Of a stretch of DNA of 62,462 bases, positions 11,197 to 62,462 are shown piece after piece. Within the stretch, counting starts at the first letter, position 1. Each line of letters starts with the position of its first letter. Made by a program: the position numbers and the translations under genes. The notes beneath the pieces were generated by a model that saw only the letters and a program-made list of their open reading frames with translations, was not told the origin of the DNA and did not search any database. Origin of the DNA: a virus (lineage: Duplodnaviria > Caudoviricetes); the IMG/VR virus record IMGVR_UViG_3300032235_001256, positions 1 to 62,462 of that record; one strand, written 5' to 3'.

Positions 11197-14100
11197 ATGA
11201 CTCTTAGACACTATGCCTGGAAAATTCGTCTCGGCAACACCGAGAACTTCCTTGATATTGATGATCTAACGGATGGATATCTGTTATGGCGAAATGGCTC
11301 CAAGGTGATGTCTACCTTGATTGACCAGGGCAAACTAAGCCTGAGCGCCCCGCAGAACCCGAATGACGCGGCGACCAAGCAGTACGTGGACGACAATCTA
11401 AATACTGACGAGTCGGCCCGTGTTGCAGTAGATACCCATCTACAGGCACAGATCGACGCGCTCATAGGTACTTCGCTGACCAGCGGCGATAAAGGTGATA
11501 TCACTATTGCGGTGGATGGCTATGCCTGGACAGTTGATACTGGCGCGGTTACGAACGCCAAACTCGCTGCTGTCGCCAGCGGTATTATAAAGGGGCGCTC
11601 ATCTGCTGGTACTGGCGCAGTCGAGGATCTGACTGGAGCTCAGGCTACCGCTCTGCTTGATGTATTTAGCGTGGAAGCCAAGGGCCTGGTCCCCGCTGCT
11701 GCCAGTGGCGGAACGACAAATTTCTTGCGAGCTGACGGTGTTTGGGCAGCTCCTCCTGCGGGCACCGTTACCGGAGTTTCTGTAGCTTCTGCCAATGGCT
11801 TGGCTGGCACGGTGGCTAATTCCGGTACGACTCCGGCAATTACGCTATCGACCAGCGTTACTGGTGTTCTTAAAGGCAACGGTACGGCCATAAGTGCAGC
11901 GGCGGCAGGCACCGATTACGCGCCGGCCACAAGCGGCTCTGCGATCCTAAAGGGTAACGGCGGTGGCGGATTCGCTAGCGCTGCCTCGGGCACTGACTAT
12001 GCCCCGGCTACAAGCGGGTCATCGATTTTGTCCGGCAACGGCAGCGGTGGTTTTGGCAGTGTAACCGTTGGAACCGGCCTTTCATTTGCTGCCGGAACCC
12101 TATCCAATAGCCAAGTGGGCCTTACTGATGGCGACAAGGGCGACATTACGGTTGCGTCTAGCGGCGCATCTTGGACTGTGGATGCAAATGCCATAAGCAA
12201 TACAAAGCTTGCTGATATGGCTACTGCTACCTTTAAGGGTCGGACTAGTGCCGGCAGTGGAGATCCAGAGGACCTCACAGCAACCCAGGCGACCGCTCTG
12301 CTGAACAATTTCACAAGCACCCTTAAGGGCTTGACTCCTGCTAGCGGCGGAGGTACTGCTAACTTCCTGCGTGCTGACGGCACCTGGGCCGCGCCGCTCG
12401 TTACTGACGGCGACAAAGGCGATATTGCGGTCGCTAGCAGCGGTACTTCATGGACGATTGATTCCGGGGCCGTTACCAATGCCAAGTTGGCAAATATTGC
12501 CACCGCTACTTTTAAGGGCAGGACTACTGCTGGCACCGGTGCTGTTGAGGATCTAACGGGCACCCAGGCTACAGCACTACTTGATGCATTTACGACCACT
12601 GCAAAGGGCCTTGTTCCTGCTGCTACAGGGGGAGGAACTACAAATTTCTTGCGTGCAGATGGAGCCTGGGCTGCGCCGCCCGCAGGTACTGTTACTAGTG
12701 TATCTGTGGTATCAGCAAATGGTATTGCCGGTACTGTTGCGAATGCGACAACTACTCCGGCCATTACGCTATCAACTAGCATAACGGGCCTTCTGCAGGG
12801 CAACGGCACCGCCATCAGTGCTGCCACGATTGGTACGGGCCTGTCATTTACTAGCGGCACGCTGTCAAATACCCAGATCGGTCTTACTGACGGCGACAAG
12901 GGCGACATCACTGTTGCCAGCAGTGGCACTTCATGGACTATTGACTCTGGAGCGGTTACGAATGCCAAGCTGGCAAACGTAGCAACTGCAACCTTCAAGG
13001 GCAGAACTACTGCCGGTACGGGCGCTGTCGAGGACTTGACTGCTACGCAGGCCACAGCCTTGTTGAATACATTTACTACCGCGGCTAAAGGCCTTGTTCC
13101 TGCTGCAACAGGCGGCGGCACTACAAACTTCCTACGTGCAGATGGCACCTGGGCAGCTCCACCAAATAGCGGTGGCACAGTTGCCAGTGTATCGGTAGTG
13201 TCCGCGAATGGTCTTGCTGGCACTGTTGCAAATGCTACAACAACCCCTGCAATAACCCTTTCAACGAGCGTCACCGGTCTGCTAAAAGGCAACGGCACTG
13301 CCATCTCTGCAGCTGTCTCAGGTGTAGATTATGCTCCTGCAGGTAATTATGTAACAATAGACACCGCCCAGACAATAACTGCAGCAAAAGCGATTGATGT
13401 TGCCGATGACGGTGCTCCTGCTCTGCGCATAACGCAGCGAGGTACGGGCGAGGCGCTGCGGGTTGAGGATGCTACCAATCCCGACTCAAGTCCATTTGTA
13501 ATCAACAAGGATGGAAGCGTTGGCATAGGAACGGCCGATCCTGGTGCAAAATTACACGTAGATAGTGGCAGCACTGGATGGGCTAAATGGGGAGCCTCTA
13601 TAGCAAGCGCATCTTACATGTCTTTTGTAAGAGGCGGAACATCAACAGAAGTCGGCTACATAGGGACTGATGGAGGTGGTATTTTAGCCGGTGGAACTGG
13701 CGACAACTTTGGCATCAGATCAGAGGGCGACCTTCTACTGATGGCTGGTTCTGCAGAGCGCGCAAGAATCACTGGGAGTGGCCGTGTTGGCATAGCAACA
13801 GCCTCCCCTGGCGCTATGCTTGATATAAATACCTCTGGTTCGACCTCTGTTACTCTGTATTCTGCGGAATTCCAGTCATCATCCGGTACGACAAACGCCG
13901 GCCGAGTTCTTTTCAGCCAAGGCAGTACATACGCGATGGCAATTGCTCCAACTGGAACTAGCGGAACCACCGGGCGAATCGACTTTCAATACATCACAAG
14001 GAGCACTGGCGCTGTGTCGACGACGCCCCTATCCATCCGTGGTGATGGTAACGTCGGCATTGGAACGACATCGCCAAGCAAGAGGCTGCATGTCAGCGGC

Positions 14101-15009
14101 AGCGGACTGCTGATCGATGGCGCCAGCTCGGTAGAGAGCGCTCCGCTTGCTGCGAGGCTAATAGTTGATAGTGGCGCTAGCACCGGCCATACCCTGGCCG
14201 ATCTGAGGAATAGCAATGGTTCGACACTATTCGTCAGCGGAACGAATGTCGGTATTGGCACTTCTTCTCCATCTGCCTCTAATCGACTTGCCATTGAGGC
14301 AGGCACTAATAACAATTTTGCCAGTGTAGCTATATCAAATACCTATATTAGCACTGGAACGTGGGAAATCTCAGTCCCCGGCACCGGTAAGACTCTGGTA
14401 TTCTCTTATAATGGAACTCAGAGAGGATTCCTGAGCAACGCTGTCAACGTATCCAACATCGACTTCACGGGCCAGCATCGGAGTGTCTCGAGTGAGCAGA
14501 CGCAGCTAACAAACGCTGATATAGGTTTGATTGTGGTATCTGATGGCTATTATCAGTCTATATCTGGTGCTAGAAATATCGGAATTAACGAGGCGCTGCC
14601 GAAAGTCAGGCTGAGTAACCAGCGCAGGCAGAAAAGCGTTTTTGGTGTCATATCGGAGAAGGAGGACGGTGACTCGCTAACCCGAGAGTACTGGGTGGGT
14701 AATTTTGTTAATGTTTACGACAAGGGGTCAGATGACAGCCGCCTTGTTATAAACTCTCTCGGGGAGGGCGCGATCTGGGTTTGCAACATAAACGGAAGCT
14801 TTGAAAATGGAGATTTCATCACATCCTGCGAAGTCCCTGGATATGGAATGCGACAGGACGATGATCTCATGCACAATTATACGGTCGCAAAGATAACGTG
14901 CGATTGTGACTTTGATCTAGCCAGCACTACCTACGTGTGCCAAGAGTTCGAGTTTAACGGGATAATGTACAGAAAAGCATTTGTCGGCTGCACGTATCAC
15001 TGCGGGTAG
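11197..15009 (+). CDS. Long fibre protein with a C-terminal intramolecular-chaperone-like domain
   Basis: N-terminal anchor shared with other fibres; DAATKQYVD; four GDKGDI...NFLRADG.WAAP units; VGIGT..P repeats; FTGQH...[10 protein letters not shown]...FVGCTYHCG terminus. Confidence 0.8.
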
Positions 15010-15171
15010 CCTTTCGACAGACATCATGCGCTGGTCCTGGCGTCATACACCGGTCGTCACTCAAGTGCGAGTGGCGGCCGGCGGCGGTATTTCGGCGCTG
15101 CTAATTATATTATATACTAGGCAAGAAATAGCAGACAGGCAAGCTAGTAAGCTAATTAACTTGGAGACACC

Positions 15172-18100
15172 ATGACTTTTAGGCCATATACTGGAAAAGT
15201 CCGTCTTGGTAATTCAGAGACTTTTCTAGATATCTCTGAACTTTCAGATGGATACGTACTTTCTCGCGAGGGAAATCAGATCGTTGCAACGCTCATCGAT
15301 CAGAGCAAGCTATCTCTCGACACCCCGTCAAGGGACGCTGATGCCGCTACAAAGGGCTATGTTGACTCAGAGCTCAGCTCAGAGGAATCTGCTCGCATCG
15401 CTGGTGATGCCGGCCTTCAGAGCAGCCTGACGTCAGAAGCGTCAGCTCGCGTAGCTGCCGATGCTGCTCTTCAGGTCGAGATTGATACTGAAGAATCTGC
15501 TCGCGCTGCCGGCGATGCATCTCTGTCAACCAGCCTGGGCAATGAGGCCTCTACTCGTGCCGCCGCAGTCGTCGCTCTCCAGGGCAGCGTTGCCGGTGAA
15601 GAGTCTGCTCGTATTGCCGGCGACAGCAATCTGCAGACGCAGATCAACAACCTGCTCTCAAACGTCACTCCCGAGTCACTTGACTCGCTGAGCGAGATTG
15701 TCTCTGCCTTCCAGGATGCCGACGGCTACCTCCTTGAAGTGGTTCAGAACCTCTCGACCGGCTCAAGCTCGGCACTTGGCATCGAGATATCCGCCCGTGC
15801 CGCTGGCGACGCGGCCCTGCAGGCTGAGATTGACACGGAAGAGTCTGCCCGTGCAGCCGGCGATGCCGCGCTCACGACCAGCCTCGGTGTTGAGACCTCG
15901 GCCCGTATTGCCGCTGATGCAGCTCTCCAGGTCGAGATTGACACGGAGGAGTCTGCCCGTGCTGCCGGTGATGCAGCTCTTTCTACCAGCCTCGGGAACG
16001 AGGCCTCGGCCCGTGCTGCTGCTGATGCAGCTCTCCAGGTCGAGATTGATGCTGAGGAGTCTGCTCGTGCCGCTGGTGACGCTGCTCTCTCCACCAGCCT
16101 AGGAAACGAGGCGTCGGCTCGAATTGCTGCCGATGCGGCCCTGCAGGTAGAGATTGATGCCGAGGAATCCGCCCGCGCTGCTGGCGATTCCGCTCTTACG
16201 ACCAGTCTAGGTGGCGAGACTTCGGCTCGCGTGGCAGCTGATGCTGCCCTCCAGGTCGAGGTCGACGCCGAGGAGTCGGCACGTGCTGCAGGCGATGCGG
16301 CGCTTTCAACCAGCCTTGGTCTCGAGACATCTGCTCGCGTTGCTCAAGATGGTTATCTGCACGATCTCATTGTTGACGAGGTCGAGCGCGCCTCGGGAGC
16401 CGAGGAGGCTCTGCAGGGCAATATCGATGCCGAGGCGTCAGTTCGTGCTGCTGCCGTTATCTCTCTCCAGGGTGAGATTGATACTGAGGAGTCCGTCCGT
16501 GCTGCCCAGGACACAGTCCTACAGGGCAATATTAACACCGAGGCTTCCGCTCGCGTCGCTGCGGATGGCGCCCTGGCTAGCGATCTGGACCTAGAGGAGT
16601 CCGCTCGTATCGCTCAGGATCAGAATCTTCAGAACAGCATTGGCTCCGAGGCGTCTGCTCGTGCGGCTGCTGATGCGGGTCTTGCTGGCGATCTTGATAT
16701 TGAGGAGTCTGCTCGTATTGCTGGCGACAGCAATCTGCAGACGCAGATCAACAACTTGCTCTCAAACGTTGATCCGGCGGCACTCGACTCGCTCAGCGAG
16801 ATTATCTCTGCATTCCAGGATGCCGATGGCTATCTGCTTGACGTGGTTCAGAACCTCTCAACCGGATCAAGCTCAGCCCTTGGCCTTGAGACCTCGGCCC
16901 GTATCGCTGCCGATGCAGCGCTTCAGGTCGAAGTTGACGCCGAAGAGTCTGCTCGTGCGGCAGGTGATGCGGCTCTCACGACCAGCCTAGGTGTTGAGGC
17001 CTCTGCCCGCATCGCTGCTGATGCAGCCTTGCAGGTCGAGATTGACGCCGAAGAGTCCGCCCGTGCTGCCGGCGACGCTGCTCTCAGCATCAGCCTCGGC
17101 AACGAGACGTCTGCCCGCATTGCTGCCGATGCAGCGCTGCAGATCGAGATCGACACCGAGGAATCCGCCCGCGCTGCTGGCGATGCTGCGCTGTCAACCA
17201 GTCTCAGTAATGAGACGTCTGCTCGCGTAGCTGCCGATGCAACGAAGTTGGCGCTCTCTGGCGGCACCATGACCGGCGCCATTGCCATGGGCAATAACAA
17301 GGTCACTGGCCTTGCAGCAGGTACCGATGCTAGCGATGCAGTTACGCTTTCGCAGCTGCAGTCCGCCATCACGGACATCGATCCTGCCGGTAGCACTGGT
17401 CAGATCCAGTTCAATGCCGATGGCTACGACTTCGGTGCTAGCGCCAACCTGGCATGGGACAATGCGCAGAGCTCACTGTTCGTGGGTGGCGCAGCCAAGG
17501 TAAATGGCGTAGTCTCGCTAGGCGAGGTCGCCGAGGTTCCGGCCGGTGAGGCGGGTTATGGCAAGCTGTTTGCCAAGAGCGACGATGGCCTGTACTTCGT
17601 TGACTCAGAGGGCGTGAATCACTACGTCCTCCTCGACGGCTACGTTCAGCTGTCTGGTACGTCTGTAGCGCTCGACGCCAGCCCATCGCTGCCGGTTTAC
17701 CGCAGCCTGAGCATGACCGACGCCACGACCTTTACCACGTCAAATCTTGGTGTTGGTCGCTCTGTCACCGTTCGCCTCGTTGCGGGGGCGGCTCAGCGTG
17801 CGGTAACCTTCCCAGCCGGATGGAGCTGGCTCGGCGGTGCAGTACCAGCTGCTATACCGGCCAACAAGGTTGCGCTACTCTCGTTCATTGCCTATGGTCC
17901 AGCCGACACTGATGTAATTGCTGCTTGGTCGTATAACGACTCTGAGGCGATCAGCGGCGGCGGCACGACTGGCCAGGTTGCTTTCTACGATGGCATCCGC
18001 TCAGTCTCCGGCGAAGCCAACCTGACATGGGACGCCGAAAACGACCGCCTTGTGGTCGGTACCGTTGCGTCACCAGCTGCCAATCTACACGTAGGCGGCA

Positions 18101-18597
18101 GCGCCCAGGTAGATGGTGCGGTCACGATGAATGGTGCAGTAACCATCGGCGATGGTTATGCTGATGTAGTTACCGTAAATGGTACCGCTACATTTAACCA
18201 GCCGGTTTCGATGGGCTCCAACAAGATCACAAATCTTGCCACCCCCTCGAGCGACAATGATGCTGTCAACCTCGCCTTCCTTGAGTCACGTCGTCTGCTG
18301 ACGATTCAGACCATTGCTGGCTCTGGTAGCGTCAATGCGACAACTGATGTCGTGTTTGTGACCGGTTCCGGCAGCTCCGTCATCCGTCTCCCCGAGGCGG
18401 TTGCTGGCAACGCTGGCAAGGTAATCGTTGTCAAGAAGCGCAACTCCGGCGCCGAAGATAACGTTGGTACCGCTTCGGGCTCTGGCCAGGCCATTGATGG
18501 CGCAGTCGCCGACTCGTCATCAAACCTCCAGGAGCTGATGCTTCTGAATGAGTCGCTGACCTTTATCAGCGACGGCAGCAACTGGTTCATCATCTGA
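15172..18597 (+). CDS. Coiled-coil fibre protein with 18-aa ExSARxAxDxxL repeats
   Basis: Long repeat shaft; KITNLA.P...DAV motifs; LP.A...G...KK...IDG...SNWFII C-terminus. Confidence 0.8.
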   Translation: MTFRPYTGKVRLGNSETFLDISELSDGYVLSREGNQIVATLIDQSKLSLDTPSRDADAATKGYVDSELSSEESARIAGDAGLQSSLTSEASARVAADAALQVEIDTEESARAAGDASLSTSLGNEASTRAAAVVALQGSVAGEESARIAGDSNLQTQINNLLSNVTPESLDSLSEIVSAFQDADGYLLEVVQNLSTGSSSALGIEISARAAGDAALQAEIDTEESARAAGDAALTTSLGVETSARIAADAALQVEIDTEESARAAGDAALSTSLGNEASARAAADAALQVEIDAEESARAAGDAALSTSLGNEASARIAADAALQVEIDAEESARAAGDSALTTSLGGETSARVAADAALQVEVDAEESARAAGDAALSTSLGLETSARVAQDGYLHDLIVDEVERASGAEEALQGNIDAEASVRAAAVISLQGEIDTEESVRAAQDTVLQGNINTEASARVAADGALASDLDLEESARIAQDQNLQNSIGSEASARAAADAGLAGDLDIEESARIAGDSNLQTQINNLLSNVDPAALDSLSEIISAFQDADGYLLDVVQNLSTGSSSALGLETSARIAADAALQVEVDAEESARAAGDAALTTSLGVEASARIAADAALQVEIDAEESARAAGDAALSISLGNETSARIAADAALQIEIDTEESARAAGDAALSTSLSNETSARVAADATKLALSGGTMTGAIAMGNNKVTGLAAGTDASDAVTLSQLQSAITDIDPAGSTGQIQFNADGYDFGASANLAWDNAQSSLFVGGAAKVNGVVSLGEVAEVPAGEAGYGKLFAKSDDGLYFVDSEGVNHYVLLDGYVQLSGTSVALDASPSLPVYRSLSMTDATTFTTSNLGVGRSVTVRLVAGAAQRAVTFPAGWSWLGGAVPAAIPANKVALLSFIAYGPADTDVIAAWSYNDSEAISGGGTTGQVAFYDGIRSVSGEANLTWDAENDRLVVGTVASPAANLHVGGSAQVDGAVTMNGAVTIGDGYADVVTVNGTATFNQPVSMGSNKITNLATPSSDNDAVNLAFLESRRLLTIQTIAGSGSVNATTDVVFVTGSGSSVIRLPEAVAGNAGKVIVVKKRNSGAEDNVGTASGSGQAIDGAVADSSSNLQELMLLNESLTFISDGSNWFII

Positions 18598-32711: not shown

Positions 32712-33131
32712 ATGAATATCAAATCCGATATAGCTGCATACAGAAAAGGGGATCGAGCCGCAGAAATGCGGCTTGCCGCTTTTGTCCGTCAATGCGAATC
32801 TCGCCAGGATGCTGCCGGGCTAGATATCCTGGTCGATGCCGGAGGTAGAGTTGGGGACCTGGCGCGGCGTGCGACTACCATCGTGCAAGTGGCATTAGAT
32901 GGCAACAAAAAAACTTCTGCGGTCAAGCGCAAGTTGCGCGATTATCTGGCACAGATCGACAGGCTAGGCTTTAATACCGATGTCGCCAAAGAAGATCGCA
33001 GATGGGTGCCGCTATTGCGCGAAGCGGCTCAGCTCAGGTGGTCGATAAAGCCGGATCAAGAAATGTATAATATTGATCTAGAGATAAGGAATAAGATACG
33101 CAGAGCCGCGCAACTTGGTGTTAAAATATGA
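32712..33131 (+). CDS. Hypothetical protein
   Basis: Operonic ORF. Confidence 0.6.
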   Translation: MNIKSDIAAYRKGDRAAEMRLAAFVRQCESRQDAAGLDILVDAGGRVGDLARRATTIVQVALDGNKKTSAVKRKLRDYLAQIDRLGFNTDVAKEDRRWVPLLREAAQLRWSIKPDQEMYNIDLEIRNKIRRAAQLGVKI

Positions 33132-33730
33132 AGACTCAGGTTCAAAAAGTAAAAGAGCGACTTGAGAAGTGGCGCGCGCCGATTGCGCGTCGCATGGAGC
33201 AGGCCGTGTCAGAGACAACTCTTCCTGACATACACGACGAGGACCATGGTCATGGCGATGAGCCAGCAGATGCCGCCAAGAGCCTACCGGCCGGTGCTCG
33301 GCCTCCTCGGGTAACATCTGGATTCGGCACGAGAGTTAGCCCTATTGACGGGGTTAGGCGCATGCACTATGGCGTCGATATTGGGGCGGGCAAGGGTCCC
33401 ACGTACGCAGCCGTAGATGGATACATTCTGCACGCAGGGCCAGCCGGCACTGCAGGAAATATGGTAGTGATCTATCGCAAAGGCAGCGACGGGAATGGCC
33501 ACCAGTACAAGTATATGCACCTTGACTCGATATCAGTGACACAGGGTCAGAGAGTGAAGAAAGGGGATCTTATAGGCACTATGGGTGAGACGGGCCGCGC
33601 CAAAGGTGTACATCTGCACTTGGAGCACCTGATGCTGGTACCGGCGGGGGATAAGTTTCAAAAACTGCACATCCCTCCTACGGCAGAGGAGATAAGCACG
33701 GCAGTACCAGGAGCAATCAAGGGCAAGTAG
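33128..33730 (+). CDS. M23 family metallopeptidase
   Basis: HYGVD, YMHL, GQRVKKGDLIG, HLH. Confidence 0.92.
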   Translation: MKTQVQKVKERLEKWRAPIARRMEQAVSETTLPDIHDEDHGHGDEPADAAKSLPAGARPPRVTSGFGTRVSPIDGVRRMHYGVDIGAGKGPTYAAVDGYILHAGPAGTAGNMVVIYRKGSDGNGHQYKYMHLDSISVTQGQRVKKGDLIGTMGETGRAKGVHLHLEHLMLVPAGDKFQKLHIPPTAEEISTAVPGAIKGK

Positions 33731-40181: not shown

Positions 40182-40325
40182 ATGTTTGACTTTAGCCAGT
40201 TTGAGATTCAGTCAGAGATACGCGAACTAAGGGAGTTGGGTCTAGATTCTGAAGAAATAGACGGATATATATGCTTCTTTTGGGATTTCCCTATAGAAAG
40301 TGAGGAAGGTTATGGCAACAATTGA
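40182..40325 (+). CDS. 47-aa acidic protein below the ORF-track cutoff
   Basis: AGAGG RBS; MFDFSQFEIQSEIRELRELGLDSEEIDGYICFFWDFPIESEEGYGNN; overlaps the next start. Confidence 0.55.
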   Translation: MFDFSQFEIQSEIRELRELGLDSEEIDGYICFFWDFPIESEEGYGNN

Positions 40326-47168: not shown

Positions 47169-47843
47169 ATGGCTCTATATCCTGTTCAGCCCGGCATTCA
47201 GCCGCTTGGCCTTTTTGATGTTCTTGACACCGAGCTCGCCGCCCTAAAGGGTGGTGAGGTCATGACCCTCGGCACCGCTCCCGTGGTCAACACCAGCACC
47301 GAGACCGCCGTTCCCGACGTTCTCGACGGCTACCACCTTAACGCGGCAGCCACCCGCCCCGTTGCGCAGCTCGCTGCGTCCGGCGCGGCGTTCGTTGCCC
47401 TTGCCGATGAGGGCACTGGTCCCGACTACTTCACCATGCTCGGCACGGTCGTCGGCGGCAAGGCCGGCCTCGTTGTCAGCGCTGGCGCCGTACTCGGCCC
47501 GCACACCGCTACCGCTTCGGGCAAGGTCACCCTTTGGGACAAGCCCGGTCTCTACGAGGTCACTCTCGACTCGATGGCCGGCGACTTCGTCAGCACGCTG
47601 ACCAGCAGCGGCCTCACCCCCGGCGTTGTTGTCGGTTTTGGCAGCGGCGTGGACAAGGGCAAGCTTGCCCACAACGGCTGCGCGAACAAGGTTGCCAGCT
47701 CAGGCTGTGCGATCTTTGTCGAGTTCGCTCACTCGCAGAGCCTCGTCACCACCCCCGCCTACCTGACCGGCGCGACCCAGACGTTTGATCGCGTCAAGGT
47801 CATGTTCCTCGGTTCAGCTGGCGCCGGCAAGGCCCTGACCTGA
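47169..47843 (+). CDS. Capsid decoration/cement protein
   Basis: Immediately upstream of the MCP; strongly biased codons like the MCP; own terminator. Confidence 0.7.
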   Translation: MALYPVQPGIQPLGLFDVLDTELAALKGGEVMTLGTAPVVNTSTETAVPDVLDGYHLNAAATRPVAQLAASGAAFVALADEGTGPDYFTMLGTVVGGKAGLVVSAGAVLGPHTATASGKVTLWDKPGLYEVTLDSMAGDFVSTLTSSGLTPGVVVGFGSGVDKGKLAHNGCANKVASSGCAIFVEFAHSQSLVTTPAYLTGATQTFDRVKVMFLGSAGAGKALT

Positions 47844-49195: not shown

Positions 49196-49552
49196 GTGAG
49201 CTTATTCGACTTATTATTTCGCAAGAGCTGTGCAGTGGAGTCTCACCCTGCCGATGGGTACCTGGCACAGCCGCCAGGGCACGACACCATTGTGCGCCCA
49301 GGCACATATCGTTTTAATAATCGCCAGGTAGATATTCTCGGTTTTCTGCCCAATGGCAAAATGAGCGCTACTCTATTCCTATGTCATGCGGGCTCGGGAA
49401 GCTGCTCAGAGTGGGGCACCTACGAGTTTTCTAGGGTATCGTACGACAAATCCCAAGAGATATGGGAAGCTATTGTTGGCAAGTCAGGCATAGTTATTCA
49501 TGTGACAAAACACCACGGCGAAGTAGCGCTGAAAATAGAGGTTGACAGATGA
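49196..49552 (+). CDS. Hypothetical protein
   Basis: GTG start with AGGTG RBS; ATGA-coupled to thyA. Confidence 0.55.
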   Translation: MSLFDLLFRKSCAVESHPADGYLAQPPGHDTIVRPGTYRFNNRQVDILGFLPNGKMSATLFLCHAGSGSCSEWGTYEFSRVSYDKSQEIWEAIVGKSGIVIHVTKHHGEVALKIEVDR

Positions 49553-50406
49553 CTGAAGCTTCCTATCTAAATATAATGCGTCAGATTCTTGATGAAGGGG
49601 TTGACGTAGAAAATGATCGCACAGGAGTTGGAACCCGAGGCATCTTTGGCGCTCAGATGGCATTTGACATGGATGACGGGTTTCCCCTACTGACCACTCG
49701 TCGCATTGCGTTTCGCATTGCATTCGAAGAGATGATGTGGTTTATCAGGGGGCAGACAGATTCCAAGATCCTTGAGCAGAAAAAAATCAACATTTGGAGG
49801 GGTAACACTACACGTGAATTCCTGGATGCAAAAGGACTGGCTCATCTCCCGGAAGGTGACGCAGGAAAGAACTACAGCTGGCAGCTACGCAACTTCAACG
49901 GCAGCCATGTGGGCTCCGGCTACGATCAGTTGGCCGCAATTGTATCTGGAATAAAGACAGATCCATCCAGTCGCCGCCATTTTGTTAGCTACTGGAATCC
50001 GCAGCAGGTGCTGACAGAGGCAGCTCTGCCGCCCTGCCATGTAAGCTGGGCAGTGCAGATTGCCGGAGGCAGGCTAAATCTATCCTTCCAGATGCGGTCT
50101 AATGATTTCTATCTAGGAAATCCGACAAATATCGCAGGATACGGGTTCCTGCTGCACGCCCTCGCCAATTTGGCCGGCTATCGTCCCGGCCGACTTGTGT
50201 TCCAGGGATCTGATGTGCATCTGTATAAGAATCAGTTAGATAACGCAATGATACAAGTCACTCGCGAGCCGCTGCCGTTGCCAGGATTTCGCATAAACAA
50301 ACATCTGTCTACTTTAGATGACCTGCTTGCTCTGCAGTATTCTGATGTAGAGGTAGTGGGGTATGCGCACCACCCAGATTTGCCAAAGGTTGAGATGGCG
50401 ATATGA
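49549..50406 (+). CDS. thyA: Thymidylate synthase
   Basis: DRTGVGT, GFPLLTT, ALPPCH, MRSND..LG.P.N, DVHLY.N. Confidence 0.95.
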   Translation: MTEASYLNIMRQILDEGVDVENDRTGVGTRGIFGAQMAFDMDDGFPLLTTRRIAFRIAFEEMMWFIRGQTDSKILEQKKINIWRGNTTREFLDAKGLAHLPEGDAGKNYSWQLRNFNGSHVGSGYDQLAAIVSGIKTDPSSRRHFVSYWNPQQVLTEAALPPCHVSWAVQIAGGRLNLSFQMRSNDFYLGNPTNIAGYGFLLHALANLAGYRPGRLVFQGSDVHLYKNQLDNAMIQVTREPLPLPGFRINKHLSTLDDLLALQYSDVEVVGYAHHPDLPKVEMAI

Positions 50407-50855
50407 GTAAATTGATCGGGATAGCTGCAGTATCGGAGAATGGCGTAATTGGTCGTGGCAACTCCCTGCCGTGGCACCTGCCAGAGGACTTGGCCTGGTT
50501 CAAATTCGTAACCCTGGGCCATACGCTTGTGATGGGTCGCGCCACCTATAATTCCATAGGCCGCCCACTTCCTGGCAGAAAAACGTATATTCTCACGAGA
50601 TCGCCATCCATCCCCTCGGAGATCAGCAGCCTGGCCGAAGCGCACTCGGACTCAGGCTTCATCTTCTTGTGCGGCGGCTCAGAGGTATATGCACAGTTTT
50701 TATTTGACTGTGACGAGTTGCTGATTACTCATGTAAAGCAAGAGGTTGACGGCGACAAGTATTTTCCTTATTTTCAACACATGTTCCATGCGACAGAAAC
50801 ACTCCGGTCAAACGATGAGTATGATATTATCAGATATGCGAGGAATCCACGATGA
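50403..50855 (+). CDS. folA: Dihydrofolate reductase
   Basis: NGVIG...LPWHLPEDL..FK, VMGR.T..SI.RPLPGR, GG..VY, GD.YFP. Confidence 0.95.
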   Translation: MSKLIGIAAVSENGVIGRGNSLPWHLPEDLAWFKFVTLGHTLVMGRATYNSIGRPLPGRKTYILTRSPSIPSEISSLAEAHSDSGFIFLCGGSEVYAQFLFDCDELLITHVKQEVDGDKYFPYFQHMFHATETLRSNDEYDIIRYARNPR

Positions 50856-52434: not shown

Positions 52435-54912
52435 ATGACTTTTAGACCATATGCCCGTAAGGTTAGGCTTGGTGATACCGAGACCTTCCTTGATATTTCA
52501 AATCTTCCAGACGGTTACGTCCTCAGCCGCAAGGGCTCAGAGATCGTAGCTGAGCTCATCGGCCAGGACAAGCTCGGTCTTGCCTCGCCCGTAAACACCA
52601 ATGACGCGGCCACGAAGGGTTACGTTGATGGCGAGATGGCCTCCGAGGTCTCCTCCCGTATTGCTGGCGACGCCGGCGTTCAGGCCAACCTGACGTCAGA
52701 GATCTCATCCCGCGTTGCGGGCGATGCCGCTCTCCAGGTTGAGATCGACACTGAAGAGTCTGCCCGTGCTGCCGGCGACGCCGCGCTCAGCACCAGCCTC
52801 GGCAATGAGACCTCGTCCCGCGTTGCTGGCGACGCAGCCCTCGCGACCAGCCTCGGTAACGAAGCCTCGTCACGCGTTGCTGGCGATGCCACCGTACAGA
52901 CCAACCTTGACAGCGAGACCTCATCCCGCATTGCTGGTGATGGCAACCTGCAGGGTCAGATCAACAACCTACTCTCGAACGTCACCCCTGAGTCACTTGA
53001 CTCCCTCAGCGAGATCGTCTCCGCGTTCCAGGACGCTGATGGCTATCTGCTTGATGTGGTCCAGAACCTCTCGACCGGTTCGAGCTCAGCTCTTGGTCTC
53101 GAGACCTCTGCCCGCATTGCCGCTGATGGCGTTCTCCAGGGCAACGTTGACAGCGAAGCCTCGGCTCGCGCCGCCGGTGATGCCGCCCTGACCACCAGCC
53201 TCGGTGTCGAGACCTCTGCCCGTATCGCTGCTGACGCGGCCCTACAGGTCGAGATTGATACCGAAGAGTCCGCTCGTGCTGCTGGCGATGCCGCCCTCAG
53301 CACCAGCCTCGGCAACGAAGCCTCGGCCCGCGCTGCTGCCGATGCAGCCCTTCAGGTTGAGATCGACACTGAAGAGTCTGCTCGTGCTGCCGGCGATGCC
53401 GCGCTCAGCACCAGCCTTGGCAACGAGACCTCAGCCCGTGTAGCTGCCGATGCCGCTCTCCAGGTCGAGATCGACACGGAAGAGTCTGCCCGCGCTGCTG
53501 GCGACGCTGCTCTCACGACCAGCCTCGGCAATGAGACCTCGGCCCGTGTAGCTGCCGACGCAGCTCTCCAGGTTGAAGTTGACACCGAGGAGTCTGCTCG
53601 TGCCGCTGGCGATGCCGCCCTCCAGGTCGAGATCGACACTGAGGAGTCGGCCCGCGCTGCTGCCGACGCTGCTCTGCAGGTCGAGATTGATACCGAAGAG
53701 TCAGCTCGCGCTGCGGGTGATGCTGCCCTCAGCACCAGCCTCGGCAACGAGACATCGGCCCGTGTAGCTGCTGACGCCGCTCTCCAGGTCGAAATCGACA
53801 CCGAAGAGTCGGCCCGCGCTGCGGGTGACGCTGCTCTCACGACCAGCCTCGGCAACGAGACCTCGGCTCGTGTGGCTGCCGATGGCGTTCTCCAGGGCAA
53901 CGTTGACAGCGAGGCCTCATCCCGCATTGCTGGCGACAGCAACCTGCAGGGTCAGATCAACAACCTGCTCTCGAACGTTGATCCGGCGTCCCTCGACTCG
54001 CTCAGCGAGATTGTCTCCGCGTTCCAGGACGCTGATGGCTATCTACTTGACGTAGTCCAGAACCTCTCAACCGGCTCAAGCTCGGCTCTTGGTCTCGAGA
54101 CCTCGGCCCGCATTGCCGCTGATGGCGTTCTCCAAGGCAACGTTGACAGCGAAGTCTCGGCTCGCATTGCCGGTGACGCTGCTCTCACGACCAGCCTTGG
54201 CGGTGAGACCTCCGCCCGTATCGCCGCTGACGCGGCCCTACAGGTCGAGATTGATGCCGAAGAGTCAGCTCGCGCTGCAGGTGATGCTGCTCTCAGCACC
54301 AGCCTCGGTAACGAGACATCGGCCCGTGTAGCTGCGGATGCTGCTCTGCAGGTTGAGATTGACACGGAAGAGTCTGCCCGTGCTGCCGGCGATGCCGCGC
54401 TCACGACCAGCCTCGGTGTCGAGACCTCGGCTCGCGTAGCTGCTGATGGCGTCCTCCAGGGCAACATCGACAGCGAAGTCTCGGCTCGCATTGCCGGTGA
54501 CGCTGCTCTCACGACCAGCCTCGGTACCGAAGCTTCGGCCCGCGCTGCTGCCGATGTCACTCTCACGAACAACCTGAACAGTGAGATCTCGGCTCGCATT
54601 GCTGGTGATATCGCCACCCGTCTCCTGGCGGTTCGCGAAGTCACTGCGAGCGGCGCGATCAACGCCAGCGATGACCTCGTGCTCATCAACGGCACCGGCA
54701 GCACGGTCGTTACCCTGCCAACCGCAGTCGGTAACTCCGGCAAGAAGATTATCGTCAAGAAGATCGATAACGCTGTCAGTGGGCCAAATGATGCGGACAC
54801 TGTCGCTGCCGCCAGCGGCGAGCAGATTGATGGTGGCTCAGAAGTCAAGATCTATCTGCAGTACGAAGCGGTTACGCTCGTTTCGAACGGCGCCAAGTGG
54901 CTGATCGTCTGA
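52435..54912 (+). CDS. Coiled-coil fibre protein, paralogue of 15172
   Basis: Same N-terminal anchor, 18-aa repeats and C-terminal domain. Confidence 0.8.
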   Translation: MTFRPYARKVRLGDTETFLDISNLPDGYVLSRKGSEIVAELIGQDKLGLASPVNTNDAATKGYVDGEMASEVSSRIAGDAGVQANLTSEISSRVAGDAALQVEIDTEESARAAGDAALSTSLGNETSSRVAGDAALATSLGNEASSRVAGDATVQTNLDSETSSRIAGDGNLQGQINNLLSNVTPESLDSLSEIVSAFQDADGYLLDVVQNLSTGSSSALGLETSARIAADGVLQGNVDSEASARAAGDAALTTSLGVETSARIAADAALQVEIDTEESARAAGDAALSTSLGNEASARAAADAALQVEIDTEESARAAGDAALSTSLGNETSARVAADAALQVEIDTEESARAAGDAALTTSLGNETSARVAADAALQVEVDTEESARAAGDAALQVEIDTEESARAAADAALQVEIDTEESARAAGDAALSTSLGNETSARVAADAALQVEIDTEESARAAGDAALTTSLGNETSARVAADGVLQGNVDSEASSRIAGDSNLQGQINNLLSNVDPASLDSLSEIVSAFQDADGYLLDVVQNLSTGSSSALGLETSARIAADGVLQGNVDSEVSARIAGDAALTTSLGGETSARIAADAALQVEIDAEESARAAGDAALSTSLGNETSARVAADAALQVEIDTEESARAAGDAALTTSLGVETSARVAADGVLQGNIDSEVSARIAGDAALTTSLGTEASARAAADVTLTNNLNSEISARIAGDIATRLLAVREVTASGAINASDDLVLINGTGSTVVTLPTAVGNSGKKIIVKKIDNAVSGPNDADTVAAASGEQIDGGSEVKIYLQYEAVTLVSNGAKWLIV

Positions 54913-55074: not shown

Positions 55075-55905
55075 ATGACATTTTACCCGTTTGCCCTAAA
55101 GCTTAAAGCTAATGACAGCGAAGAACTTCTAGAGCTCACCGCGCTGAAGAATGACGAGATGCTAGTCAAGATAGGCGACTCGATTACATCTTCACTTATT
55201 TCAGCTGATCAGATAAACAATATAAACTTTCCATCTCCAATAATCCCGACGCAGATTGCAAACAAGCAGTACGTTGATGACGCGGCAGCCAGTGTTCTTG
55301 CCAGTGTATCGCTCGATGACCAGGCTTTTCTAAGACTAGACGGCTCCCGCCCTATGCTTGGCAATCTGTCGATGGATGGCTATTCCGTAACAGGCCTAAG
55401 AGAGCCCTCCGCTCTCGCAGATGCAGCTACCAAGAATTATGTAGACTCTACCCTATCTGCTGTTATAGATGGCCTGTCTTTTGCCGATCTCGGCTTCTTC
55501 ATGACTGACGGCTCTAGGCCGATGTCAGGGCATATTGATGCCGATGGCTATCTGATAACAAATCTCCAAAGCCCGATCAATGCTCGGGACGCTGCGACCA
55601 AGGAGTACGTCGATTCGCTATCTAGGTTGGCGGTTGTGACCACTACAACTAACTACGAGATAAAGCTATCAGACAGAATTGTGCTCGGAGATGCCTCGGC
55701 CCAGCCCGTGTTCCTTGATCTGCCGTCTGCAGCCGGTCAGGCCGGCTTGCTGTTCAATATAAAGCGAATTTCTCCAGGCGATAATGATCTTTTTGTTCGC
55801 GCCGCGCCCGGTGAGACTCTGGATGGCGAGAGCGTTATTTCGCTGCTGCTTCAATGGGAGTCGATGACGGTCGTATCCAACGGAGCGAATTGGTACATAA
55901 TGTAA
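55075..55905 (+). CDS. Short fibre protein
   Basis: ATG at 55075 (MTFYPF); DGSRPM.G...DAATK.YVD twice; shared C-terminal domain. Confidence 0.75.
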   Translation: MTFYPFALKLKANDSEELLELTALKNDEMLVKIGDSITSSLISADQINNINFPSPIIPTQIANKQYVDDAAASVLASVSLDDQAFLRLDGSRPMLGNLSMDGYSVTGLREPSALADAATKNYVDSTLSAVIDGLSFADLGFFMTDGSRPMSGHIDADGYLITNLQSPINARDAATKEYVDSLSRLAVVTTTTNYEIKLSDRIVLGDASAQPVFLDLPSAAGQAGLLFNIKRISPGDNDLFVRAAPGETLDGESVISLLLQWESMTVVSNGANWYIM

Positions 55906-55939: not shown

Positions 55940-55992
55940 TATCTATTGCGATGTAGTTCTTAGCAGCGCTATTCCTGCCAGAGGTGCGTAGG

Positions 55993-56799
55993 ATGAAGAG
56001 AGTTAACGTGGCACTTGCTGGCTCCGGTCAACTTTACCCTGCCTTTGTTGGCGCTCTAATATGCCTAAAAGAAAGAGGCATCGAGATAGTAGAAATAAGT
56101 GGAACATCTGGTGGCGCCATCATTGCTGCCGCGATATCCGCTGGTCTCGACCCCAAGGTCGACATTGCCGCCCTCGTCAAAGCAACCTTGCCTGTCAAGA
56201 GTAAGCTTTTTGATTTTTCTCTGCGCTCTATTCTGTGTAGGTGGGGCCTTATTCGCGGCAATAAAATAGAGAATAAGTTTAACCAATATCTTCATAAGAC
56301 ACTGGGAGAGTCCAGGATTCCGCTCCACATCACTGCCTCTAATATATCAGCTCGAAAGCTCAGGATATTCAGCTCTGCTTCCGATCCAGGTTTTAGCACT
56401 GCAAGGGCTATAAGGGCGTCGATATCGTTGCCGTTTATATTTGAGCCGGTTGTTATAGATGGCGATCTCTATGTGGATGGTGGCTGGATGAAGAATATGC
56501 CATCAGATGTGTTCTCTAACGGTCTTCCTGTCCTAGCTTTTAAGACAACTCCGCATTCCGGCATTGTAACAGGCATAACTGCGCTAAAGAACTATCTTGT
56601 TGCCCTTTTTGAGTCAGTCATAGATGGCGACAGAGCACATCGGCACCAGGAGTACATCTACAAAATACATATCCCAACGCGCTTCAATCCTCTGAATTTC
56701 AATGTAAATGAGGTCGAAGTAGATTTTATGATCCAAGAGGGTTATCGGGCTGCGTCCGAGTGGTTGGAAATGAATGAAGAAAAAATCTTCACAATGTGA
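55993..56799 (+). CDS. Patatin-like phospholipase
   Basis: LAGSG, GTSGG, AS.S.P..F.P, DGG. Confidence 0.9.
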   Translation: MKRVNVALAGSGQLYPAFVGALICLKERGIEIVEISGTSGGAIIAAAISAGLDPKVDIAALVKATLPVKSKLFDFSLRSILCRWGLIRGNKIENKFNQYLHKTLGESRIPLHITASNISARKLRIFSSASDPGFSTARAIRASISLPFIFEPVVIDGDLYVDGGWMKNMPSDVFSNGLPVLAFKTTPHSGIVTGITALKNYLVALFESVIDGDRAHRHQEYIYKIHIPTRFNPLNFNVNEVEVDFMIQEGYRAASEWLEMNEEKIFTM

Positions 56800-57781: not shown

Positions 57782-57782
57782 G

Positions 57783-58291: not shown

Positions 58292-59179
58292 TTGAGTCAA
58301 ATCTTTTACAAGAGAGCAGCCATCCCTCCGGGCGGAGTGATTCGGCTGGAGGTCCAGTTTCGCGACTCTGCTGGTTTGGCTCGCGATACCGACCAGTTTC
58401 CGCAGATAGAGATTGCCAATAGCGATGGCGTCATTGTCCATCCGGCCTCTAGTTATGGTGTTCGCCGGCTGGCCGAGGGGCGATACAGGCTGCAATATAC
58501 TGTTCCAGATGGCTATGCTGATGGCGTGTGGCGAGACACTTGGTCTGCTACCCTCGACGGTTTTGCTAATATAGCAAATTTCGACTTCAATGTGCTTAGT
58601 CAGGGCACGATCACTGCCACGGGCGACACGGTCACGACCCCAGAGATGAAGATCGGGGATGTGCCCAAGATCAACTTTACCCAACAGGAGATCTATGGCA
58701 TCAACATTCTGATGCAAAAGCTGCGCTTTCGTCTCAGGAATACTCAGCGCAAGCCAGACGGATCACGTTGCGACATCTTGTCCATAGATGACATGGAGTC
58801 GTTCATATGGCTTGCTCTTAGTGAGTTTAATGCGACGCCGACCTTCACGTCCTATACGACTGCAGACCCATCGATTTATACGATATTTTCGGATCTTATC
58901 GTAGAAGGCGCATATTTAAAAGCGCTACCCAGCCTTATCCCAGCCGAAGCTGGTCGTGAATGGGTTGTAACAGACGATGGTATCTCTGTGACGCCTGCAT
59001 CTGTAAGCTCTGCTCTATCAAACATAATGTCAGCCCTGTATTCCGAGTATCGAGCGAAGCTTAAAGAAGCAAAGAGAAATCACCGTCCTGCTCCGCTCGG
59101 CATGGGTGCTGGCCAGCTTGCGGTCGCTCACCCGACATTTAGGCGCCTGCGCAACATTCGTTATACCGGTCAGTTCTAG
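58292..59179 (+). CDS. Head-tail adaptor/neck protein with an N-terminal Ig-like domain
   Basis: GRY...YTVP...G.W.D.W; ALSEFN.TP..T; ..TDDGIS..P; position after the MCP. Confidence 0.65.
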   Translation: MSQIFYKRAAIPPGGVIRLEVQFRDSAGLARDTDQFPQIEIANSDGVIVHPASSYGVRRLAEGRYRLQYTVPDGYADGVWRDTWSATLDGFANIANFDFNVLSQGTITATGDTVTTPEMKIGDVPKINFTQQEIYGINILMQKLRFRLRNTQRKPDGSRCDILSIDDMESFIWLALSEFNATPTFTSYTTADPSIYTIFSDLIVEGAYLKALPSLIPAEAGREWVVTDDGISVTPASVSSALSNIMSALYSEYRAKLKEAKRNHRPAPLGMGAGQLAVAHPTFRRLRNIRYTGQF

Positions 59180-59188
59180 GAGTTAAAA

Positions 59189-59934: not shown

Positions 59935-59947
59935 GCGAGGATTGTTT

Positions 59948-60157
59948 ATGGCCGATAACGAAGTCGAAAATCCGCGCAAATCGCGCAGAGACAGGTTGGC
60001 AAAGCTACGCGAGCAGATTGCGGCCATGGGCGAATGCGAGGCTTCGGGTGACCAAGAAATAGGAGAGCCCTGTTGCCTAGCAGAAGAACTTCAGAAGATT
60101 AAAGACCACATTAGAAAGAGGAATAATGAAGCTGTTCTTGCGACGCGCACAGAGTGA
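59948..60157 (+). CDS. Hypothetical protein
   Basis: GAGG RBS. Confidence 0.55.
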   Translation: MADNEVENPRKSRRDRLAKLREQIAAMGECEASGDQEIGEPCCLAEELQKIKDHIRKRNNEAVLATRTE

Positions 60158-60623: not shown

Positions 60624-60666
60624 TAATTTGTCAGATATAGGCTAACAAAGCTATATCTGAGGAAAA

Positions 60667-62462
60667 ATGACCCCAACCGCACCGGCATGGCTAGACCCTA
60701 GAAAACCAGGTCTGCGATCAGCAAAGCAAAACATTGCTGATGGTAGCGTGCTGCTGCAGGTTACCGAGGCCATTCCCAGTACCTCGTCCTTGCAGGTAGT
60801 TTATCTTATTTATGCGGGAGAGACTGCAGTTCCTGCCCGGCCGACGTTCATATCTCCAGATGTGCCCGTCCTAATTCCCGCTGCTTTTGCCGGAGGAGAT
60901 TGGCATTTTAAAGTTACGGCTACAAACGGCGCGGGACTGCTGGATTCGCCAGGTCTTTCTGAAGTGGTAGCGAGCCTCTATGCTTTTCCAGATACAGTTG
61001 CGCTTGCAGCCGATTTTGATTTAAGCGATACCACGTTTTCTCTCACAGATAGCGCCGGATACCCTGTTGATGGCTATCTAGTGATCGGAGAGGAGATCAT
61101 TCAATATGCGTCGCTTGTCAGCGGTAGTGGCACTGTAGTTGCGCGCGGATTGTTTGGATCGACAGCGGTGCCGCACTCAGCCGCGGACGAAGTTGCCCTT
61201 TGGGTTGGCGTAGAGGCGGCTTCCGCCGAGCTCGTGAGCATACCTTCATGTGGTCTAACCAGGCCCAAGTGGTTTGATCCGCGAAAGGTCGGGCTGGAAC
61301 AGGCGATTGATTTTGGAGATGGCAGTACAGTTGGCTTGCGGTGGGATTATGCGACAGTTCCTGCTGGCTTCAGTACCACTTACTACCAGATATATAAATC
61401 AAACAATCTGAAAACCATCTACGACCGCCCTCTGTTTATTACGACTGCTAACGAGGCAACCCTGACCGGGATAACTCCAAAGGAAGGCTTTTATTACGGT
61501 GTTCGTGCAGCGTATTTTCTCGCGGATTTTACGACCTCTGGCATGATAGAGCACTCGCCGGGACTATTTCAAGTACCAGAGCCAACTGAGTTGCTAGACA
61601 ATCTTATACAAGGGGCCCTCGGCCCTGTGCAGGTAGCATCTACCGCAGGATTCCCCTCCTCGGGACTGCTGCGGATTGGTCACGAGATAATGAAGTACAG
61701 CTCTCTGACAGCTACTTCATTTATGATATCGGCTCGTGATGTTTTTGCCCTGGCATGGACCGAGGATTTGCCGGCTGGCTCGTCGGTAGAGATGTTCCGT
61801 GGCGTAGATGACGCTACTGATTATTTCTGGCGCCTGAATACATCATGGGACGGATATGGCTTAGCAGCGCTGCCGCTTGAGCCCGGCGATGGATATTGGG
61901 GATTCGGCTACCTACAGGATCCAGACGGCTATAGGAATTTTCCAGTGGCGCCTCAGAATGAGGATCACTCGATACAGGATGAGGACGCAGAGAGCGCCGA
62001 GCCGTTCGACTACTGCGGCTTGCGTTCAAATGACCAATCACAGGTACTTAGCGGTGACTTCTGCGGGCCTAAAACTCCTCATGGCAGCGGTACATATCAC
62101 GGCAATTCCATGCTGGGCCAAGCAGGTGGCATTGATGTCTACGAGGGTAATCTTCAGCGTCAGGAGATGCTGCTGGGGATAACTGGTGAGCCGTTTGTTC
62201 TGCTGCGCAGAAAATGGACTGGCAAGGTTTGTCCGCGCATTTCGCATAGGACGGAGCACCCAGAGGCGCGTTGTAGCCTCTGCTACGGCACCTCCTTCGA
62301 AGGTGGATATCAGCGCTACATCAATACTCGTCTTCTGCGCCCGGCCGAAGAGAACCCGAACGGCTTCATTAATCTGAGGATAGGGCCGTATCAGGATGAA
62401 CTCGATCTAGTTGATTCTCGAGGCTTCTCTACTGAAAAGACAGACCTAAGCGGCTGGACTAC
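60667..62462 (+). CDS. Neck/head-completion protein with duplicated FN3-like N-terminal modules; truncated by the right edge
   Basis: Manually translated, open from ATG 60667 to the edge. W.DPRK.GL twice; GYP/GFP..G...IG.EI twice; TGEP..L.RRKWTG..C...CSLCYGTSFEGGY. Confidence 0.7.
   Translation, partial: MTPTAPAWLDPRKPGLRSAKQNIADGSVLLQVTEAIPSTSSLQVVYLIYAGETAVPARPTFISPDVPVLIPAAFAGGDWHFKVTATNGAGLLDSPGLSEVVASLYAFPDTVALAADFDLSDTTFSLTDSAGYPVDGYLVIGEEIIQYASLVSGSGTVVARGLFGSTAVPHSAADEVALWVGVEAASAELVSIPSCGLTRPKWFDPRKVGLEQAIDFGDGSTVGLRWDYATVPAGFSTTYYQIYKSNNLKTIYDRPLFITTANEATLTGITPKEGFYYGVRAAYFLADFTTSGMIEHSPGLFQVPEPTELLDNLIQGALGPVQVASTAGFPSSGLLRIGHEIMKYSSLTATSFMISARDVFALAWTEDLPAGSSVEMFRGVDDATDYFWRLNTSWDGYGLAALPLEPGDGYWGFGYLQDPDGYRNFPVAPQNEDHSIQDEDAESAEPFDYCGLRSNDQSQVLSGDFCGPKTPHGSGTYHGNSMLGQAGGIDVYEGNLQRQEMLLGITGEPFVLLRRKWTGKVCPRISHRTEHPEARCSLCYGTSFEGGYQRYINTRLLRPAEENPNGFINLRIGPYQDELDLVDSRGFSTEKTDLSGWT

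Follow-up and report, generated by a model that had tools for sequence, protein, structure and literature searches.

The 62,462-base window analysed here is the whole of IMG/VR virus record IMGVR_UViG_3300032235_001256 and encodes TerL, a portal, a protease-like protein of 1306 amino acids (aa), a major capsid protein (MCP), ThyA, DHFR and several fibre genes; our subject is the tripeptide Asp-Gly-Tyr (DGY), which recurs in its predicted outer virion proteins. The window is an entire database record, yet it is only a fragment, about one-sixth, of a huge-phage genome of ~370 kb. A viral contig rated 100% complete, G001 (371,675 bp, with direct terminal repeats), has a portal 91% identical to the one in the window; the window is syntenic with positions 202-263 kb of this contig. 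The nearest isolated phage is Bacillus phage G, with 29% identity in the portal and 44% in the MCP; portal and MCP searches and a comparison with phage nucleotide sequences turned up no cultured member of the clade, and megablast with 24 kb of the window found no nucleotide-level relative in the phage collection. As set out below, DGY looks like a protein-level motif kept in many copies on solvent-exposed turns of virion-exterior proteins in a large clade of uncultured huge phages, its carriers being coiled-coil fibres, a tail protein with an FN3-type array and a capsid-decoration-like protein.

Seven outer proteins hold 21 of the 23 DGY found in open reading frames (ORFs) of at least 70 aa, in agreement with the initial annotation. 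Their genes lie on the plus strand and are named here by their first position in the window. Gene 11197 (11197..15009) encodes a fibre-like protein of 1270 aa with three DGY, at nucleotides (nt) 11272, 11515 and 14542, a protein paralogous to fibres 15172 and 52435. The 15172 product (15172..18597; 1141 aa) is a trimeric-adhesin-like coiled-coil fibre with seven DGY (nt 15247, 15721, 16348, 16825, 17419, 17635 and 18151), and 7 of its 16 tyrosines fall within DGY, exactly as first annotated. This fibre passes the Pfam YadA_stalk family (PF05662; 31.7 bits vs a cutoff of 28.4) and matches PDB entry 3d9x, Adhesin A (BadA), with an E value of 0.002 over a neck-like ...KVTGL....DAV..SQL segment, the two matches placing YadA-type stalk/neck repeats in the protein. 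Genes 11197 and 15172 are flanked by orthologues of G001_206655 and G001_207331. G001 lacks fibre genes in this interval, so that close relatives differ by the movement or insertion of fibre genes. A further coiled-coil fibre of 825 aa (52435..54912) has three DGY (nt 52510, 53038 and 54034), and a short fibre (55075..55905, callable from 55018) has two (nt 55375 and 55543) and a DGSRPM..(DGY)..TGL neck-like module.

The remaining three carriers are a core protein of 224 aa (47169..47843) encoded just upstream of the MCP gene, with one DGY at nt 47325 (residues 53-55); a 295-aa protein of unknown family (58292..59179), with one DGY at nt 58508 that is conserved in the G001 orthologue; and a tail-module protein with an N-terminal FN3-like array (60667..62460), with four DGY at nt 61069, 61849, 61888 and 61924. 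The last is cut by the contig end, its full length being ~667 aa. Pfam and PHROGs gave no match for 47169 or 58292, and a PDB sequence search with 60667 gave none either. The other two DGY lie in an M23 peptidase outside the tail module (33128..33730, plus strand; nt 33416) and in a 118-aa ORF (49196..49552, plus strand; nt 49253) whose motif is conserved in a G001 orthologue that is 43% identical. TerL (27916-30846; 976 aa), the portal (from 30855), the protease-like protein (from 36101) and the MCP (from 48028) are free of DGY in this ORF set, as had been noticed at the outset.

Counting was done in a greedy ORF set of 19,752 residues, which contains 23 in-frame DGY. Its per-protein composition predicts 2.42 (Poisson 2.5e-15) and a first-order Markov model 5.7, and 5000 within-protein shuffles of the window ORFs gave a mean of 2.44 and a maximum of 10. 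The initial annotation had counted 24 DGY and estimated that two to three would occur by chance, and both figures hold: the twenty-fourth copy (nt 40260) sits in a 47-aa ORF (40182..40325, plus strand) that falls below the size threshold and whose status as a gene is uncertain. Tripeptides differing from DGY at one position were at an ordinary level in the window, with 4 DGF vs 3.2 expected, 1 NGY vs 1.5 and 1 DAY vs 3.5.

The four fibres of the window are paralogues of one another and share some of their DGY, namely an N-terminal site present three times, a SLSEIVSAFQDADGYLL site present four times and a DGSRPM...DGY site present twice. When sites were merged if their 20 flanking residues were at least 30% identical, 16 contexts survived (P 7e-9), or 14 when the three tandem 60667 sites were also merged (P 2.9e-7), close to the approximately 15 independent contexts first estimated; corrected for 8000 tripeptides, these P values become 5e-5 and 2e-3, respectively. 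Before this collapse the most enriched tripeptide of the window was SAR (64 vs 9.4 expected). The source of its excess is an ETSAR(V/I)AADAAL-type coiled-coil unit in 15172-18597 and 52435-54912, often spaced at 36 residues, and after the collapse SAR drops out and DGY leads all other tripeptides by four orders of magnitude. Paralogy alone is rejected by the 14-16 independent contexts.

Selection on DGY acts on protein and not on DNA, a conclusion already drawn in the initial annotation and confirmed here, because the matches are frame-specific, ten codon spellings are in use and the same enrichment is found at guanine-plus-cytosine (GC) contents of 33-53%; a DNA-level motif is rejected on the same grounds. 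The degenerate pattern GAYGGNTAY has 25 plus-strand matches, of which 23 are in the gene frame, and 4 minus-strand matches. An account of DGY as chance, a paralogy artefact or a DNA-level signal can point to the 9 of 23 sites spelled GATGGCTAT and to the many sites in paralogous fibres; set against the contexts that survive collapse, the 23 of 25 plus-strand matches in frame and equal enrichment at GC 33%, 41%, 46% and 53%, it can hardly be credited. Sibling repeats point the same way, in that all four of the contrasts that had been quoted, with DGY replacing other residues, were found in the sequence: ETSARVAQ-DGY-L vs ETSARVAA-DAA-L in 15172, PV-DGY-LVIGEEI vs PS-SGL-LRIGHEI in 60667, LSM-DGY-SVTGL in 55075 vs IAM-GNN-KVTGL at the homologous place in fibre 15172, and a sibling repeat of 11197 with different residues at the place of DGY.

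Relatives of the window were sampled with a portal-profile search, which returned 51 loci, and five records were fetched behind loci of more distant relatives: G007 (GC 46.5%), G008 (GC 33%), G009, G010 and G011, the last three of which carry little or nothing downstream of the portal. A further record, G006 (125,545 bp; GC 41%; portal 49-53% identical), was reached via P0069, a fibre homologue with 15 DGY. The five records that hold the tail/fibre module (the window, G001, G006, G007 and G008) span GC contents of 33-53% and portal identities down to ~50%, and in every one of them DGY ranks first among the enriched tripeptides, or second behind a repeat or start-codon artefact. DGY was the top tripeptide in G006 (56 vs 6.4 expected), G007 (24 vs 5.9) and G008 (59 vs 8.7), and in G001 (56 vs 16.5) it was second only to the start-codon artefact MKL. 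The three clade fragments without the module showed no DGY enrichment (observed/expected 7/3.9 in G009, 3/4.4 in G010 and 3/3.0 in G011). The size of the clade is indicated by the family of core protein 47169, which comprises at least 747 library proteins.

Within each genome the excess is confined to the tail/fibre modules. Observed and expected counts inside them were 22/0.9 in the window, 46/5.0 in G001, 52/2.0 in G006, 22/1.3 in G007 and 56/5.0 in G008; outside them they were 1/1.5, 10/11.5, 4/4.4, 2/4.6 and 3/3.8, respectively. Pooled over the five records, the modules contain 198 DGY vs 14.2 expected, and the remainder 20 vs 25.8. Since DGY occurs at chance level outside the modules, the copy in the M23 peptidase 33128 is probably a background occurrence. 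All three positions of the motif are strict. In the 253,060 residues of G001, G006, G007 and G008 together, DGY was found 195 times vs 37.5 expected (5.2x), compared with 0.85x for NGY, 0.89x for EGY, 1.07x for DGF, 1.15x for DGW and 0.88x for DAY; the highest single-position variants were DGT (2.4x) and DGH (2.1x), the others being near 1x. A general preference for Asp-Gly-aromatic sequences or turns is rejected, variants of DGY being at chance level in the window and in the four genomes.

DGY is likewise not a general property of this fibre family or fold, which is rejected by homologous modules elsewhere that lack it. The representative library contains 5019 homologues of fibre 15172, and of the best 150, which were examined, 122 are free of DGY; of the ten with at least two DGY, seven match clade proteins best, at 50% identity or more. 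The SLTEIVSAFQxA-XXX-L module was found in 156 instances, in which other phages have DSD (35), DGD (18) or DSN (15) and DGY occurs five times, always in close relatives; DSD, DGD or DSN correspondingly occupy in other phages the place of DGY in the SLSEIVSAFQDA-DGY-LL module of 52435. In 431 coiled-coil repeats of the form E.sAR.A.-XXX-L from other phages, DGY was not found once. Equal frequency in homologues from unrelated phages, which had been named as damaging to the idea of a tag, is not what these homologues show.

No DGY-specific enrichment was seen in four outgroups: phage G (33 vs 21 expected, with DGF at 35 vs 21), Tunturi_5 (17 vs 11.5), Rctr197k (5 vs 5.9) and LR745208 (22 vs 18.3). 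A cluster of big proteins in phage G has 14 DGY vs 2.9 and 9 DGF vs 2.2. In Bacillus phage G, four large proteins encoded at 326-343 kb share a ...DGYWYVRG... repeat, with seven copies overall. Because the cluster's DGY are mostly copies of this single repeat and DGF is equally raised, the excess was not counted as DGY-specific, and phage G was rejected as a carrier of the tag.

We examined the location of the sites in predicted structures. An AlphaFold2 (AF2) model of a full-length orthologue of 60667 has a predicted local distance difference test (pLDDT) score of ~85 over residues 1-390, which form tandem FN3-like domains; Foldseek matched the model to the FN3 tandems of fibronectin, titin and contactin with probabilities of 0.9-1.0. 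The DGY columns within residues 1-390 lie in loops, in hairpin inserts or at loop-to-strand starts, and the C-terminal 270 residues, which include three DGY, are uninformative at a pLDDT below 50. In the AF2 model of 47169 (pLDDT 80.9) the single DGY lies in a loop; the best Foldseek matches of this model are weak and fall on decoration/cement chains of BB1, T1, Pam3 and TW1 (E 0.06-1, TM 0.35-0.57). Mapping on predicted structures, as the initial annotation had proposed, thus placed the sites in loops or at strand starts in both models, in which they look exposed. By its counts and these two models, DGY is a short position-specific motif on surface-protein loops, as in a sequon.

The sites are gained and lost among orthologues, and copy number stays high. 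Each of 15 orthologues of 60667, at 48-99% identity, has three to six DGY vs 0.13-0.25 expected, distributed over 13 alignment columns of which one is invariant. In the alignment of these proteins (A2), nine columns are held by a minority of sequences vs at most 2.9 expected if the 15 sequences were independent. The DGY of 47169 is invariant in 120 of 120 homologues among the matches listed (41-96% identity; 747 hits) and is kept in all five clade genomes. Where sites have been lost in clade genomes, they align with DGS, DGT, DGL, NGQ, SGQ, DND, DTA and similar sequences, and the tyrosine of DGY was replaced by Phe in 3 of 50 substitutions, compared with 133 of 528 for other tyrosines in the same alignments (Fisher P 0.0014, computed on pairs that are not independent). 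At window positions 3-2707, on the minus strand, two tandem paralogues of ~445 aa each match G001_202936 (800 aa), which has DGY at two positions where both window proteins have DTA and DGT.

Two familiar structural motifs were considered and rejected. The tyrosine corner has the consensus L-x-P-G-x-Y, so that Gly occupies Y-2 and Pro Y-3, and its Tyr is buried and either conserved or swapped with an aromatic residue. DGY has its Gly at Y-1, the residue preceding the motif, usually A, S, T, V or P, is not a fixed Pro, and lost tyrosines become polar or small residues, which also contradicts a tyrosine corner. EF-hand or DxDxDG calcium loops have Asp or Asn at two alternate positions upstream of D-G; in the flanks of 135 sites, Asp is at -2 in 10 of 135 and none is listed at -4, and only some modules, such as QDADGY, fit an EF-hand-like pattern. 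More broadly, DGY could be a structural or folding device, with an Asp-Gly turn and a strand-starting Tyr that staple hairpins or trimer interfaces, or a signal for phage chaperones. The position of sites at loop-to-strand boundaries, the invariance of some of them, and the trigger-factor-like and DnaJ proteins encoded by the clade (with a Lon protease in G001) would suit such a role. We nevertheless judge it improbable, given that homologous modules fold without DGY (122 of 150 have none, with DSD or DAA instead), that beta-rich proteins encoded in other parts of these genomes show no enrichment, that NG turns, Phe or Trp would serve equally and yet are not enriched, and that lost sites turn into polar residues rather than aromatics.

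The strictness of the motif, its turnover at high copy number and its absence from the fibres of other phages together suggest that a clade-specific macromolecule reads DGY. Strictness, restriction to the exterior, location in loops, reluctance to accept Phe and copy number also argue against a generic turn or sticky patch. Recognition need not involve an enzyme: DGY might be a direct binding hot spot, providing multivalent weak adhesion to host surface glycans or docking a clade-specific partner or neighbouring fibres. Tyr and Asp are typical of carbohydrate-binding sites, and the placement of the sites on exposed loops of fibres and FN3-like domains, a copy number that is maintained as positions turn over and the preference for Tyr over Phe all agree with this explanation. 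We consider it somewhat unlikely, in that generic adhesion would tolerate NGY, EGY, DGW and DGF, none of which is enriched, and the same exact tripeptide recurs across GC contents of 33-53%, a range that probably means different hosts; furthermore, invariance (120/120) on a capsid-decoration-like protein is less natural for a host-receptor role.

Our preferred explanation, held tentatively and with rather less than even confidence, is that a factor specific to the clade recognises DGY as a tag, the most plausible form of which is a sequon for tyrosine glycosylation. The factor would then be an enzyme, the enzyme a glycosyltransferase and the tyrosine its acceptor, and the best candidate reader is the clade's set of GT4- and GT2-type glycosyltransferases. 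In G001 a GT4-type gene (G001_128004, with a Pfam match above cutoff) is adjacent to a GT2-like gene (G001_129088), and G006 and G007 carry orthologues of the two. Another GT4, G001_313990, shares 31% identity with G008_159423; each directly follows three syntenic large structural genes, and in G008 a GT2 comes next. In G006 the GT4/GT2-like pair belongs to a glycan locus of ~19 kb (2.4-21.3 kb), most of it common to G007 and unusually large for a phage, which encodes at least seven glycosyltransferases, a GDP-mannose 4,6-dehydratase, a UDP-GlcNAc 2-epimerase, a UDP-Glc/GDP-Man dehydrogenase, a HAD-nucleotidyltransferase fusion, methyltransferases, an enzyme of C-methyltransferase type and several epimerases or reductases. 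GT4/GT2-type genes were found in all four large clade records and in none of the four outgroups, which amounts to one phylogenetic contrast; nine clade glycosyltransferases had no phmmer match in the four outgroups, and the best phage matches of the clade GT4 are Streptomyces phage glycosyltransferases at 21-24% identity.

With such enzymes, a sugar would be attached to the Tyr hydroxyl of DGY, giving a sugar coat on fibres, tail tip and head surface. The full picture, in which fibres, tail tip and capsid bear sugars made by enzymes of the clade itself and added in the cytoplasm to Tyr in a DGY sequon of three residues on exposed turns, strikes us as possible and rather doubtful. Other chemistry might instead be marked by DGY, such as sulfation, phosphorylation, nucleotidylation or oxidative cross-linking of Tyr, or Asp-Gly isomerisation as a timer. 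The motif is strict, its hydroxyl seems to matter and Asp-Gly is the sequence most prone to isoaspartate formation; no such enzyme was found among the Pfam-scanned ORFs, which were 36 of 474 in G001 and 20 of 123 in G006. We give this group of explanations little credence.

Several observations weigh against a glycosylation sequon on the virion exterior. The covalent sugar is proposed from sequences and models rather than from virions, and the target of the glycosyltransferases is a candidate one. The link between these enzymes and DGY is weak because it comes down to one clade-versus-outgroup contrast. The GT4/GT2-like pair of G001 is located among replication-type genes (helicase, AAA and ligase), and DNA modification therefore also fits. 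Tyrosine O-glycosylation is, to our knowledge, rare in bacteria, and we know of no case in phages. As for the motif itself, the module boundaries used to divide each genome were drawn after the DGY positions were known, and the rest of the proteome shows no clear DGY depletion (20 vs 25.8 expected). The invariant sites (47169 in 120/120, and column 447 of A2) and the three A2 columns that accept Phe also fit a structural or binding role. In addition, the measure of variable columns in A2 is modest; it is supportive and not decisive, since two other tripeptides reach similar ratios.

The initial annotation had proposed a phage-wide sequon for modifying the virion surface and had seen no candidate modifying enzyme in the window. 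The window indeed contains none. For the sequon there is circumstantial support in the glycosyltransferases conserved in the complete relative and three other clade members, the modification as such being an inference, and 'phage-wide' is not supported as stated, the window being a 62-kb fragment of a ~370-kb genome.

Some further features of these genomes deserve mention. A patatin-like phospholipase is encoded at 55984-56799, inside the fibre module (Pfam match on the G001 orthologue, 5.4e-25); it may be a virion-associated lipase, as it is conserved in G001, G006 and G007. Genes for thymidylate synthase and dihydrofolate reductase (49549-50855) lie between the MCP gene and the fibre genes, and a 591-aa protein with an HNH endonuclease domain (8453-10228) has no counterpart in G001 or G006. 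TerL has 976 aa in the window vs 629 aa in G001, and the additional part (residues 302-477) is likely an intein-type insert because it matches a LAGLIDADG homing endonuclease. The MCP of G006 (97350-99355) seems to be split into two ORFs, of 169 and 115 aa, that flank a third of 270 aa, and the gene may be interrupted by an intron, intein or mobile element. G001 also encodes, in L048 (17857-19203), L042 and L039, a tubulin/TubZ-like protein, a trigger-factor-like protein, DnaJ, Lon protease, a Pol III alpha subunit, RecA and an SbcC/Rad50-like ATPase.

A search of the literature for a DGY tag or motif found no description of one, and a search on tyrosine glycosylation with bacteriophage returned, as far as titles and abstracts tell, nothing on phage virions. 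Should DGY prove to be a code for modification or docking, no earlier short sequence tag would be known to label the outside of a phage particle. Exterior proteins of uncultured huge phages could then be recognised by a simple rule of sequence, and GT4/GT2 with DGY loops would provide a testable enzyme-substrate pair that can be expressed without phage culture. Glycosylation, if true, would constitute a new protein-glycosylation code in bacterial viruses, with site number kept by selection like the glycan-shield sequons of enveloped viruses. A phage-made sugar coat would bear on host recognition, particle stability and how the immune system sees phage particles. Even without an enzyme, a strict tripeptide selected ~14-fold on virion surfaces across GC contents of 33-53% needs explaining.

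Finally, we compared DGY with known systems. Bacterial glycosylation sequons include D-(S/T)-(A/I/L/V/M/T) in Bacteroidota and D/E-X-N-X-S/T in Campylobacter; they resemble DGY as motifs of three to five residues that occupy exposed places on surface proteins and have an acidic residue just before the acceptor, and differ in their Ser, Thr or Asn acceptors and in periplasmic transfer from a lipid carrier, as against a presumed Tyr acceptor and cytoplasmic virion assembly for DGY. Tyrosine O-glycosylation occurs in the S-layer proteins of Paenibacillus and Thermoanaerobacter and in glycogenin. The S-layer case shares with the proposal for DGY a sugar on the Tyr hydroxyl of a surface protein, whereas both S-layers and glycogenin involve other enzyme families and are non-viral, and we know of no DGY consensus in either. 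Trimeric autotransporter adhesins (YadA/BadA) resemble fibre 15172 in stalk and neck, unlike which it is a phage fibre without a membrane anchor, and its homologous modules in other phages lack DGY. Virus-encoded glycosylation is also known from the fibrils of Mimivirus and from the major capsid protein of chlorovirus PBCV-1, the latter as cited in PMC5852040. Like G006 and G007, with their ~19-kb locus, these are large viruses with their own nucleotide-sugar and glycosyltransferase genes; they differ as viruses of eukaryotes with other attachment sites.

Among phages, mycobacteriophage virions are reportedly glycosylated by phage-encoded glycosyltransferases, a finding said to be that of Freeman et al. 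2023 (Cell Host Microbe), and we know of no tripeptide sequon on Tyr described for that system. In both cases phage glycosyltransferase genes adjoin structural genes, as in G001 and G008 here, and exterior virion proteins are the presumed targets; unlike in mycobacteriophages, the carriers here are fibres, an FN3 array and a decoration-like protein in unrelated huge phages, and modification is proposed from sequence. The mycobacteriophage work is cited in PMC12582341. According to PMC5852040, the jumbo phage XacN1 encodes two glycosyltransferases and has at least two glycoproteins in its virion, and we know of no sequon reported for it. XacN1 is absent from the listed top matches of the portal and MCP searches and is not a close relative, yet it matches the clade in its similar jumbo size, its direct terminal repeats and its own glycosyltransferases, and its virion proteins are glycosylated according to the same text. 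The conserved glycosyltransferases of the clade and the glycoproteins reported for XacN1 (PMC5852040) make a tyrosine glycosylation sequon the leading candidate for the role of DGY.

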